DNA of 63,885 nucleotides, the filler included, from Reclinomonas americana ATCC 50394 (taxonomy: Eukaryota): the NCBI GenBank assembly GCA_048213135.1. It is 5 parts of 3 records of this genome, joined end to end, with 100 filler letters (N's around TTAATTAATTAA, not from the genome) between each part and the next. Parts side by side here need not be neighbours in the genome. Positions count along the whole stretch, not along the records: positions 1 to 19,292 come from PS015026.1; 4 more parts are not named here. One strand, given 5' to 3'. Under the pieces are notes generated by a model, which ran no database searches, was not told the origin of the DNA, and saw only the letters and a program-made list of their open reading frames with translations. This document shows, piece after piece, positions 11,210 to 17,394 of this stretch. Position 1 is the first letter of the stretch; every line of letters begins with the position of its first letter. A program made the position numbers and the translations under genes.

Positions 11210-14200
11210 TTAGTCGCGGAAGAAGATGCGTGCGCTGAGGAACGAGAAGAACAGCAGCTCGAACTCTCTTCGGTACGACATGATGCGGTTGACCGTCAGT
11301 TGCAAATGCTGCGTCTCGTCGTCCTGACGTTTCCGACCGGCCAGCTCCCGTCGTACTTTTTCTGTTGGCGGGGTGTGTGTGTTAGTCAACTTGCCCTCCT
11401 CCCGCGTATACCCGCTGCCTTTCCGAACCTTGTTCCTCGCTGTAGTGCATCTGCACGGACTCGAACCATCGCAGGCCGTCGAACTGCTTGTTCTGGTCCA
11501 GCAGCTTGAGCACAAAGGCCAGACCGAGTGCGAAGCCGTCGTCGCAAAAGTTGCTCTCCTTGTTCTTCTTCGTCAGCTTGTCCTTACTGGCCAGCATGTG
11601 GTCCACGTAGGAGAGCGTCAGCGGTGGCACGATAATGTAAAAGTTGCGCAAATGGAAGTTCTGCTCCTTGCGCATCTCGTCCTTGAAGACCTCCACCAGG
11701 ATCTTGAAGTAGTCGGAGCCCTCGGCGAACTTTTGCATCAAGTTGTTCAGCACCGAATCCACGTTACTGTGCGTGCGTGATGGGGTGGTCAGAAACCTCC
11801 CTCTTCATCCTTCACAGCCCTTGGAGAAAATAAACGGCACTCACCGAGCGGCAGTCACCGACTCCTCCGACAGGCTGGAGGCCACCGCCTGCTCTTCATA
11901 ATTGGGTGTCTTTTCCAGATCTGTGTGCGCAAAAACGTGAGAGACAGAAACCCCCCGGCTGCGACTCGCTCGGCTGTCAACGCACCGGGCACAAACTTGA
12001 TTGCGTTACTAATGTAATGCACACCACCGGAGCGCACCATGCGCACGTATCCCATGGCGTTGCCTGCGGCGGCAGAAGAGGAGGCAATGGTCAGCATTTT
12101 GCTGTGCGCCCCTCAGCTTGCGAACGACAACTCACCAATCTCGGTGACCAGCACGCGGAACTGGTCGAGGTAGCTCTGGTTCTGNNNNNNNNNNNNNNNN
12201 NNNNNNNNNNNNNNNNNNNNNNNNNNNNNNNNNNNNNNNNNNNNNNNNNNNNNNNNNNNNNNNNNNNNNNNNNNNNNNNNNNNNNNNNNNNNNNNNNNNN
12301 NNNNNNNNNNNNNNNNNNNNNNNNNNNNNNNNNNNNNNNNNNNNNNNNNNNNNNNNNNNNNNNNNNNNNNNNNNNNNNNNNNNNNNNNNNNNNNNNNNNN
12401 NNNNNNNNNNNNNNNNNNNNNNNNNNNNNNNNNNNNNNNNNNNNNNNNNNNNNNNNNNNNNNNNNNNNNNNNNNNNNNNNNNNNNNNNNNNNNNNNNNNN
12501 NNNNNNNNNNNNNNNNNNNNNNNNNNNNNNNNNNNNNNNNNNNNNNNNNNNNNNNNNNNNNNNNNNNNNNNNNNNNNNNNNNNNNNNNNNNNNNNNNNNN
12601 NNNNNNNNNNNNNNNNNNNNNNNNNNNNNNNNNNNNNNNNNNNNNNNNNNNNNNNNNNNNNNNNNNNNNNNNNNNNNNNNNNNNNNNNNNNNNNNNNNNN
12701 NNNNNNNNNNNNNNNNNNNNNNNNNNNNNNNNNNNNNNNNNNNNNNNNNNNNNNNNNNNNNNNNNNNNNNNNNNNNNNNNNNNNNNNNNNNNNNNNNNNN
12801 NNNNNNNNNNNNNNNNNNNNNNNNNNNNNNNNNNNNNNNNNNNNNNNNNNNNNNNNNNNNNNNNNNNNNNNNNNNNNNNNNNNNNNNNNNNNNNNNNNNN
12901 NNNNNNNNNNNNNNNNNNNNNNNNNNNNNNNNNNNNNNNNNNNNNNNNNNNNNNNNNNNNNNNNNNNNNNNNNNNNNNNNNNNNNNNNNNNNNNNNNNNN
13001 NNNNNNNNNNNNNNNNCGCGTTGGTGCCCAGCTTGCGAATGTCCTTGTTGAACTTCTCCGTGCGTTTCAGCGGCCACATGTTCTGCAACGACTCGCGTTG
13101 TTCGCGGAAGAAGCGAATGTCGGTGATCAGTCGCGACTTGATGTAGTCGTCGTACAGGAACTGGGAGAAGATGAAGAACTTGCGCGACAGGAACTGGTAC
13201 ACGAGGTTGACCTGCACAGCCGAGTGAGTGACGGGAATCGCATGAGTATGTGTGCATGTGTGGCGAGTAACGTGCGCGACGCAACTGTGGTGTTCATGAT
13301 GCCGGTGCCGTGTGTGCGAATCGAGTTGGAAATGTGACGAATGTTGATGGTGTTGAGGTGCTTTGAATCGGTGGCGGCGCATCGCTCCACAAACACCTGA
13401 TTGTAAATGTCGTAGCTGTAGCGCGACACGAACAGGTGAATGTTGCGCGTGATTTCCAGCACGTCTAGGCCCTGTGACGGAGGGGCGAGAGTGAGTGCAC
13501 AGTCAAACAGACTGCTCTGGAAGCGCGACCGCACGCAACTTGCTCCAGTGTGGCGCCCGGCAAGTAGACCTCGGGCAACTCGAGACCGTACTTTTCACGC
13601 GCCAGATTCCTCATCTCGCCGTACGTCTTCCAATCGTGCAGCGCAATCGCCGTCAAATTGTAGAACGTCTGATTCAGGTAGTGACTCACGCTCCCTGCAA
13701 AAAGGCCAGGGTGAGAACCACAGACCTTCTCATACGCATAAAAATCATATTTCGAGAACGCACCCTTGATGTCGATGAGATCGCCAAAGATGCGCACAGG
13801 TCGCAGCTTGAAGAACGATGCCGGGTCGCGCACCGTGCTCGCAATCTGCTGTCCCCGCTGGCCGAGCACCACCGTGTGGATGTGCAGACGCAAGTCGTTT
13901 TCCACATCGCGGCACAGGGGCTGGATGACGTGCTCACGCAGCGTATCCTCCAGCTCCTTCTTGTATAGCACCACCAGATCCTCCGGCTTTTCCAAGTGCT
14001 GCTGCTGCCGCAGCGTGCGCTCGCAGTCTTGGAAGGCCACCATCATGTACTGTGGCGGAAGGTGAGCGTAAGCATCAACGCCGGGAAAACCAGGCAGTCA
14101 ACAAAGACACACACACACCGGCAGACGGAAAGCAGCCAGCGGTGAGTCGTACACGTGTCGCATGTACACGGGAATGAGCTCGCGATGGCCATACAAAAAC

Positions 14201-17200: not shown

Positions 17201-17394
17201 GACATACAAACAGACGCACAGGGAGGAGAGAGAGAGAGAGAGTGAGCGTGAGTGAGTGAGTGTGAGTGTGCGCGACAATTTCCGCCCACACAACTTTCCG
17301 GGTCGCCACTGAATGCATCAAAAGTGTACGCATCATCATCGTCATCCATGCGACTGGCGGTGGCCGACGGCGCAGCTGACGAGGACGACGCCAT
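11210..17394 (-). CDS. WASHC4: WASH complex subunit 4 (SWIP/KIAA1033), about 17 exons
   Basis: Diagnostic motifs: [137 protein letters not shown]. Confidence 0.95.

Follow-up and report, generated by a model that had tools for sequence, protein, structure and literature searches.

The window analyzed here, a 63,885-nucleotide stretch of the genome of Reclinomonas americana ATCC 50394 (assembly GCA_048213135.1), carries on its minus strand the gene for WASHC4/SWIP (WASH complex subunit 4/7), and the introns of this gene open with one of two donor sequences (5' splice sites) depending on the last base of the preceding exon. All six introns that follow an exon ending in a base other than G begin with GTTG(C/T)GT, whereas none of the ten that follow G does so (Fisher p = 1.25e-4). 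We refer to donors of the first kind as displaced and to the others as normal; a slash marks the exon–intron junction, and H stands for a non-G base. Weighing the sequence patterns described below, we lean slightly toward the explanation that the major spliceosome reads the H/GUUGCGU donors in a register displaced by one base.

Results

Displaced donors in WASHC4

The WASHC4 model consists of 18 pieces of exon with 16 introns that can be read, and N gaps break it at 12185-13016, 15853-16343, and 16880-16899; the open frames on either side of the first gap encode 926 and 230 amino acids, and this gap may hide further introns of the gene. The preliminary description of this DNA had named the gene as WASHC4/SWIP, and that assignment holds: all eight single exons tested match the Pfam families WASH-4_N, WASH-7_mid, or WASH-7_C (E from 1e-10 to 4e-49), and 12 full-length orthologues align collinearly with the model at 32 to 54% identity, one of them (P0003) reaching 54% over 1130 aligned residues. 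The best protein match to the C-terminal exon is 71% identical. The six non-G donors lie exactly where that description had put them (Table 1), each with the motif GTTG(C/T)GT, and its count of G at +5 in nine of the ten donors that follow G is also correct, the exception being the GTGCTG of intron 8.

The value of this observation depends on the junctions, which had been said to be fixed by conserved protein. All six GTTGYGT junctions lie in gap-free stretches of the alignment with the 12 orthologues, two of them inside invariant motifs (LEQ/GLDVL and GIMNTT/VNF). In the Pfam profile, the exon with the MNTT end stops at position 235, and the next exon begins at 236. Frame alone permits two to five GT-AG solutions at each of the six introns. 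We scored the alternatives, that is, the other in-frame and stop-free GT-AG solutions, against a hidden Markov model (HMM) of 84 full-length orthologues from which the gene model itself was excluded. All 16 alternative junctions fell below the model, by 3.9 to 26.5 bits, with the smallest margin at intron 6 (15010). Judged by the gap-free alignment and the lower scores of all 16 alternatives, the conserved protein does fix the six junctions, and on the strength of these protein comparisons we take the displaced-donor observation in WASHC4 as confirmed.

Displaced donors in other genes of the window

The pattern recurs beyond WASHC4. In the gene for CCT-eta (TCP-1 subunit eta), both verified non-G donors read GTTGCGT, and G is found at +5 in all five donors that follow G. 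One more C/GTTGCGT, at 56867-56873 (minus strand), is a candidate CCT-eta donor leading to a short last exon ending in GRGRF*; it lies in the unconserved tail and was excluded from the counts. The Rpb8 gene adds A/GTTATGC and T/GTTGCGC, each being the sole frame-keeping GT-AG pair at its site. Solved structures place the Rpb8 junctions within one to four residues, in loop regions, and because this is as close as the structures come, these junctions rest on the uniqueness of the frame. In the head of a kinesin motor gene, eight of the nine donors follow G and are all normal, and the ninth, which follows C, is GTGAGT at 43876, inside the invariant VR/PL.

Two further copies of GTTGCGT, at 43446-43452 and 43309-43315 (minus strand), lie inside kinesin introns and are unused as donors, one of them 16 nt past a G/GTGCGT donor and the other near a 3' end. 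The motif by itself is therefore insufficient to make a donor.

Altogether, 36 donors are verified by homology or frame (16 in WASHC4, 7 in CCT-eta, 9 in kinesin, and 4 in Rpb8). The exact motif GTTGYGT is present in eight of the 11 that follow a non-G base (p = 5e-6). A wider displaced form, defined by T+3, G+6, and the lack of G+5, is present in 10 of these 11 and in none of the 25 that follow G (p = 4.3e-8); with WASHC4 excluded, the corresponding counts are 4/5 and 0/15 (p = 1e-3). These results bear on two claims of the preliminary description. Its motif GTTG(C/T)GT covers most verified cases and is nonetheless too narrow, since GTTATGC and GTTGCGC also occur, the common features being T+3 and G+6. 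Its "shifted-donor rule" captures a real split by the last exon base; the split is a strong tendency instead of a rule, which the kinesin C/GTGAGT breaks.

Table 1 Genes and donors placed in the window. A slash marks the exon–intron junction.
Feature	Position	Strand	Donor	Phase	Evidence or remark
WASHC4/SWIP gene	11211..17394	-			Pfam, open reading frames, orthologue alignment
Displaced donor, WASHC4 intron 1	17288..17294	-	A/GTTGTGT	1	4 of 4 alternatives 6.4-12.7 bits lower
Normal donor, WASHC4 intron 2	17077..17082	-	G/GTGTGT		orthologue alignment
Displaced donor, WASHC4 intron 3	16370..16376	-	T/GTTGCGT	0	profile continuous at about 158/159; N gap inside intron
Normal donor, WASHC4 intron 4	15572..15577	-	G/GTGTGT		orthologue alignment
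Normal donor, WASHC4 intron 5	15240..15245	-	G/GTAAGC		orthologue alignment
Displaced donor, WASHC4 intron 6	15004..15010	-	C/GTTGCGT	2	best alternative 3.9 bits lower; least secure of the six
Displaced donor, WASHC4 intron 7	14823..14829	-	T/GTTGCGT	0	orthologue alignment, HMM scoring
Normal donor, WASHC4 intron 8	14636..14641	-	G/GTGCTG		orthologue alignment; sole G donor without G+5
Normal donor, WASHC4 intron 9	14113..14118	-	G/GTGTGT		orthologue alignment
Normal donor, WASHC4 intron 10	13758..13763	-	G/GTGCGT		orthologue alignment
Displaced donor, WASHC4 intron 11	13533..13539	-	CAA/GTTGCGT	0	LEQ/GLDVL; position common to 18 other-eukaryote loci
Displaced donor, WASHC4 intron 12	13279..13285	-	ACA/GTTGCGT	0	GIMNTT/VNF; position common to 9 other-eukaryote loci
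Normal donor, WASHC4 intron 14	12130..12135	-	G/GTGAGT		orthologue alignment
Normal donor, WASHC4 intron 15	11980..11985	-	G/GTGCGT		orthologue alignment
Normal donor, WASHC4 intron 16	11839..11844	-	G/GTGAGT		orthologue alignment
Normal donor, WASHC4 intron 17	11423..11428	-	G/GTTCGG		orthologue alignment
CCT-eta (TCP-1 subunit eta) gene	56784..59650	-			7 donors fixed by alignment with 10 orthologues
CCT-eta donor after G	59585	-	G/GTGCGT		homology
CCT-eta donor after G	58666	-	G/GTGAGT		homology
CCT-eta donor after non-G	58477	-	C/GTTGCGT		homology
CCT-eta donor after non-G	57833	-	T/GTTGCGT		homology
CCT-eta donor after G	57608	-	G/GTTTGC		homology
CCT-eta donor after G	57397	-	G/GTTGGT		homology
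CCT-eta donor after G	57160	-	G/GTGAGC		homology
Kinesin motor gene (head)	42460..43914	-			9 donors fixed by alignment with 12 homologues
Rpb8 gene	3759..4611	+			4 donors, frame
Rpb8 donor	3832	+	G/GTGACT		
Rpb8 donor	3936	+	G/GTGTGT		
Rpb8 donor	4100	+	A/GTTATGC		
Rpb8 donor	4427	+	T/GTTGCGC		

The displaced motif across the window

Across the whole window, GTTGCGT occurs 38 times against an expectation of 14.2 ± 3.7, and GTTGYGT occurs 56 times against 27.5 ± 4.6; neither count was reached in any of 100 shuffles. We also predicted introns with an exon-chaining parser that uses codon usage, GT/AG ends, and reading frame, and kept a noisy run that was blind to the donor sequence as a control. 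In this donor-blind run, GTTGYGT accounts for 13 of the 99 better-supported introns, compared with 0.73% of all GT sites (p = 6e-13), and outside WASHC4 and CCT-eta, it accounts for 6 of 77 (p = 2e-5). Lacking a donor model, the parser fused genes and put 8 of the 23 known donors in the wrong place.

We then trained a donor mixture with two components, using solely introns predicted in the window with WASHC4 and CCT-eta left out. The first component (64%) corresponds to GTGNGT preceded by A-2 (0.57) and G-1 (0.88), and the second (36%) to GTTGCGT with G-1 at just 0.08 and A (0.44) or T (0.31) in its place. The parser with this two-class donor model recovered all 23 held-out verified donors, compared with 15 of 23 for the parser without it.

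Given these counts, we consider it very improbable that the displaced class is an artefact of wrong junctions or a chance product of a motif common in a TG- and CG-rich genome. It is true that the junction calls come from sequence alone, that frame by itself leaves 1 to 13 GT-AG solutions per intron (the model's own included), and that ab initio predictions are noisy. Against such an origin, however, the junctions are gap-free in invariant motifs of three genes, 16 of 16 alternatives are worse, the motif stands at 2.7 times its expectation, the association on verified donors has a Fisher p of 4e-8, and intron positions are shared with other eukaryotes, as described below.

Anatomy of the two donor classes

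The two classes were characterized from 58 sites (23 verified and 35 predicted), of which 39 are normal and 19 displaced. The normal class has A-2 at a frequency of 0.58, G-1 at 0.96, G+3 at 0.66 (A 0.08), G+5 at 0.86, and T+6 at 0.63, with a mixed +4 position (A 0.36, C 0.26, T 0.26). The displaced class has T+3 at 0.96, G+4 at 0.86, C+5 at 0.81, G+6 at 0.96, T+7 at 0.76, and G+8 at 0.46, and its -1 base is A in nine sites, T in seven, C in two, and G in one. When the normal matrix is slid along the displaced sites, it scores +1.3 bits at offset +1 compared with -6.0 at offset 0 and -8.4 to -20.1 bits at offsets -3, -2, -1, +2, and +3. The word "shifted" in the preliminary description is therefore borne out for the consensus: it is right that, at this level, the displaced donors are the organism's normal donor signal moved one base into the intron.

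In other respects, the introns of the two classes look alike. Their median lengths are 67 and 67.5 nt (p = 0.8), and CAG acceptors terminate 34 of 39 normal and 16 of 19 displaced introns, with CAG or TAG in 57 of 58 overall; the equal lengths and acceptors suggest that the same 3' machinery serves both. Each of the 36 verified introns runs from GT to AG, and its removal leaves the frame intact. A CTRAY branch motif is found in just 15 of the 58 last-45-nt stretches. The downstream exon begins with G after 10 of 19 displaced and 9 of 39 normal introns (p = 0.04). The donors read GTTGCGT or GTGNGT and not the RTATCCTT of U12-type introns. The displaced-class introns would thus be best read as short GT-AG introns of the major (U2-type) spliceosome.

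Age of the introns and choice of the exon end

The preliminary description had asked whether the displaced introns are ancient ones that were converted or a lineage-specific class. We scanned metagenome contigs with the exon between introns 11 and 12 of WASHC4 and obtained 80 loci from other eukaryotes, the best at 76% identity; several are near-duplicates, so the independent lineages are fewer than the loci counted here. At the position of intron 11 (TLEQ/GLDV, exactly between Q and G), 18 loci have an intron, all preceded by CAG and beginning with gt in 16 and gc in two, and together they show at least 10 different donor sequences. In the two gc loci (L008 and L014), it is a GC-AG intron with the donor CAG/gcaagt. 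At the position of intron 12 (MNTT/VNF), nine loci have an intron, with the junction ACT/gtaatt, ACT/gtaaat, or ACA/gtgcgt. One locus (L007) has both, with CAG/gtcagt where the window has CAA/GTTGCGT and ACA/gtgcgt where it has ACA/GTTGCGT. As both positions are shared to the nucleotide with other eukaryotes, introns 11 and 12 are old introns whose donors were converted in this lineage. For these two, then, the answer is conversion; introns 1, 3, 6, and 7 have no informative locus, the 2 to 15 covering metagenome loci at each being unbroken and apparently intron-less copies.

Shared positions also speak against an introner, a mobile element that generates introns and would have brought its own donor, as the source of the GTTGCGT introns. 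Uniformly short introns with a uniform first seven bases would suit such an element. However, a common word at E <= 1 is found in just 15 of 153 pairs of displaced intron interiors, and the top matches are CT repeats of 10 to 13 nt; similar low-complexity matches are found between the classes as well, and no pair is alignable over its full length. Long CT/GA and CA/TG microsatellites lie within many introns (e.g. 17230-17270, 43600-43635, and 4120-4155), and they alone account for the similarity between introns. Together with lengths and acceptors equal to those of normal introns, this makes an introner origin hardly credible.

The exon side of the displaced junctions is unusual for this genome. 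GC content at third codon positions (GC3) is 80% in the four verified genes (2044 codons), and yet a codon ending in A or T precedes five of the six verified phase-0 displaced donors (p = 0.0016). At three of these six, the preferred synonymous G-ending codon (CAG, ACG, or CTG) is unused, although usage favors it (CAG 73 vs CAA 16, ACG 47 vs ACA 14, and CTG 122 vs CTC 43). As synonymous G-ending codons were available, the protein does not force a non-G exon end; the exon end tracks the donor class.

How the displaced donors may be read

In the normal class, AG/GUGNGU, the signal would lie in G-1 of the exon and in G+5 and U+6 of the intron. According to the displaced-register explanation, the intron part would sit one base deeper where the exon ends in a non-G base (H/GU-UGCGU), with G+1 taking the slot of G-1, U+3 that of U+2, and G+4, G+6, and U+7 those of G+3, G+5, and U+6. 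The RNA that reads the donor, which would be the 5' end of the U1 small nuclear RNA (snRNA) and later the ACAGAGA region of U6, would pair one nucleotide further into the intron, while cleavage would stay before the first GU. Such a donor could arise by the insertion of one T after GT (H/GTGCGT to H/GTTGCGT), leaving the coding sequence untouched. Displacement would explain T+3, G+4, G+6, T+7, G+8, and the lost requirement for G-1, and it fits A at -1. We infer that U1 and U6 pairing in this register is the cause.

A number of observations weigh against this explanation, some of which concern the pairing itself. We ran RNAduplex with the standard 11-nt U1 5' end (ACUUACCUG), from which the organism's own U1 may differ. 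Normal donors paired in the canonical register at -4.5 to -12.3 kcal/mol, whereas displaced donors reached just +0.5 to -4.6 kcal/mol in any optimal register, and the displaced register was optimal at one of the 19 displaced-class sites folded (5849, minus strand). The composition of the donors also departs from a simple displacement. C+5 is present in 16 of 19 displaced donors, compared with C at the equivalent +4 position in 10 of 39 normal donors (p = 4e-5). A is found at +4 in 14 of 39 normal donors and at the displaced +5 in one of 19, although position 5 of the standard U1 favors A. T at -1 (7 of 19 displaced donors) is not predicted by displacement, which predicts A. By pair count, H/GUGCGU in the normal register would be at least equal, yet it is rare. 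As for the preliminary description, plain shifted pairing to the standard U1 is thus thermodynamically weak and leaves C+5 and T-1 unexplained.

The sample supplies the remaining points against it. The kinesin C/GTGAGT at 43876 is a verified exception, in which the normal register works without G-1. When WASHC4 and CCT-eta are set aside, the donor-blind run shows no significant association with the -1 base (4 of 40 non-G and 2 of 37 G donors, p = 0.68). Strictly filtered predictions in other genes assign the displaced class to 10 of 11 non-G and 1 of 24 G donors, a result that is partly circular in that the donor model was trained on the same predictions; the filtered set also contained a false donor at 42633, which the kinesin alignment exposed. 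Donors of the form GGG/GTTGCGT are predicted at 9089 (plus strand) and 26288 (minus strand), in genes without a recognizable family, and if real, they would mean that the displaced motif is allowed after G. Three weakly supported H/GTGCGT donors, from a looser prediction set, are found at 8241 and 60791 (plus strand) and at 6058 (minus strand), and these are possible further exceptions of the kinesin type. All donors sampled come from one 64-kb chain of contigs. Finally, no Rfam family was found within the window, and hence no snRNA gene there.

Some of these difficulties would be resolved if the reader of the displaced class were a dedicated or altered snRNA, whether an additional variant of U1 or a U1 5' end specific to the lineage. 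Such a guide, with the core ACGCAAC as the complement of GUUGCGU, might for instance carry G and C at U1 positions 5-6, A at position 8, or both; the two donor classes would then reflect two guide specificities instead of one guide in two registers. The displaced motif is far sharper than the normal one; the order of preference at +5 (C, then T, then A and G) is that expected for pairing to G; A is nearly absent at +4/+5, contrary to pairing with U or pseudouridine; the standard U1 5' end forms almost no stable duplex with displaced donors; and normal donors, too, favor G (0.66) over A (0.08) at +3. On the other hand, the match of the normal matrix at offset +1, reaching G at +7/+8, would have to be a coincidence, and normal donors behave as the standard U1 predicts, with a preference for A+4 (14 of 39) and with GTGAGT and GTAAGC among them. 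Moreover, few RNA sequences of eukaryotes are as conserved as the U1 5' end. We therefore regard an altered guide as a possible but doubtful alternative to the displaced register. Its fullest version, to which we give a similarly tentative hearing, would have a single spliceosome work with two donor codes: H/GUUGCGU would be read by a second U1 specificity, about a third of the introns, ancient ones included, would have been converted by insertion of a T after GU, and the last exon base would have been selected as A or U despite the 80% GC3.

In a bulged-U register, U1 and later U6 would pair normally with G+1 and U+2, loop out one of the U's at +2/+3, and pair again from G+4 onward. Such a register accounts for T+3, G+4, G+6, and T+7 no less well than displacement, leaves the GU in the paired state that the catalytic core requires there, and is documented in human cells (PMC4856993). 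In this arrangement, however, C9 of U1 would be free for G-1, which should thus stay favored, whereas just one of the 19 sites has G-1 and 16 have A or T there, despite a GC3 of 0.80, and the preferred G-ending codons (CAG, ACG, and CTG) are unused at three of six phase-0 cases. A bulge further carries an energy cost relative to unbulged H/GUGCGU, and the bulge register was never chosen in duplex folding. Overall, we find a bulge improbable as the explanation for the displaced class.

Composition and other features of the window

The window is eukaryotic DNA rich in N gaps, and the nearest named proteins to its genes are from discobid protists (78% identity on one exon to CCT-eta of the jakobid Seculamonas; SWIP of Acrasis). 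Four identical spacers, at 19293-19392, 40932-41031, 59902-60001, and 62775-62874, have the form N44-TTAATTAATTAA-N44, an all-frame stop linker. The window therefore strings at least five contigs together artificially, and the order and orientation of the pieces are uninformative. The C-terminal part of the kinesin (DSKLTRILQ...) lies at 41033-41330 on the plus strand, just after a spacer, while the head is on the minus strand and extends into the gap at 41622-42378; the scaffold probably holds the small piece 41032-41621 in inverted orientation. The plus strand also carries genes for a MINDY-3/4 deubiquitinase (31084-31985), an H-type lectin domain protein (62890-63249), and a long coiled-coil protein with weak matches to FAM184 and Rab11-FIP3 (44677-46171).

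Discussion

An exchange between the exon and intron parts of a donor has precedent. A missing G at -1 is reportedly offset by stronger positions +3 to +6, as in the maximal dependence decomposition of Burge and Karlin in 1997 and in the work of Carmel et al. in 2004. The donors described here resemble such exon–intron compensation in that the loss of G-1 goes with a stronger intron part. However, the known compensation keeps the register (H/GTAAGT), as does the kinesin C/GTGAGT, whereas here the signal is displaced by one base in 10 of 11 verified cases. U12-type introns offer a second comparison, as they too place a sharp second donor consensus beside the main one. Unlike them, the displaced introns lack RTATCCTT and have the acceptors and lengths of normal introns, and no U11/U12-like RNA is found in the window.

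The closest parallels are the unusual registers of human splicing. Roca and Krainer are said to have described, in 2009, shifted-register 5' splice sites of human genes. According to PMC4856993 and PMC9311317, shifted and bulged registers between the 5' splice site and U1 are established in human cells, at rare sites, and for the bulge at +2/+3, the former gives 68 predicted 5' splice sites, of which 54 were kept after curation. The displaced donors resemble the human shifted register in that the bases complementary to U1 would lie one position deeper, cleavage precedes GU, and G-1 is dispensable. They differ from it in frequency, as the human sites are rare and atypical and depend on a long AAGUAU-type match to the standard U1, whereas the displaced class makes up about a third of the donors here (36% in the mixture and 10 of 36 verified). 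They further differ in having a sharp UGCGU consensus of their own, with C+5 and poor pairing to the standard U1, and in being coupled to A or T at -1 and located at ancient intron positions. The human +2/+3 bulge (Roca et al. 2012; Tan et al. 2016; PMC4856993) is similar in that GUU is followed by the rest of the consensus, but G-1 is still useful there, compared with 1 of 19 here.

Andalucia godoyi is intron-poor, with introns in only 12% of 864 genes according to PMC7050145, and on that description it offers no model for this window. Our searches of an open-access library, which extended to protist and jakobid introns, turned up no genome in which displaced donors form a major class, although one may be described elsewhere.

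In practical terms, gene finders that use a single donor matrix will miss or misplace displaced introns. If the present reading is true, about one intron in three in this organism would be recognized in a displaced register or by a second guide, tied to the last base of the exon, and the reading would make a sharp prediction for the organism's U1 and U6 genes. It would then also provide a natural system in which donor recognition is uncoupled from selection of the bond to be cut, and in which the co-evolution of splice signals and snRNAs could be followed.

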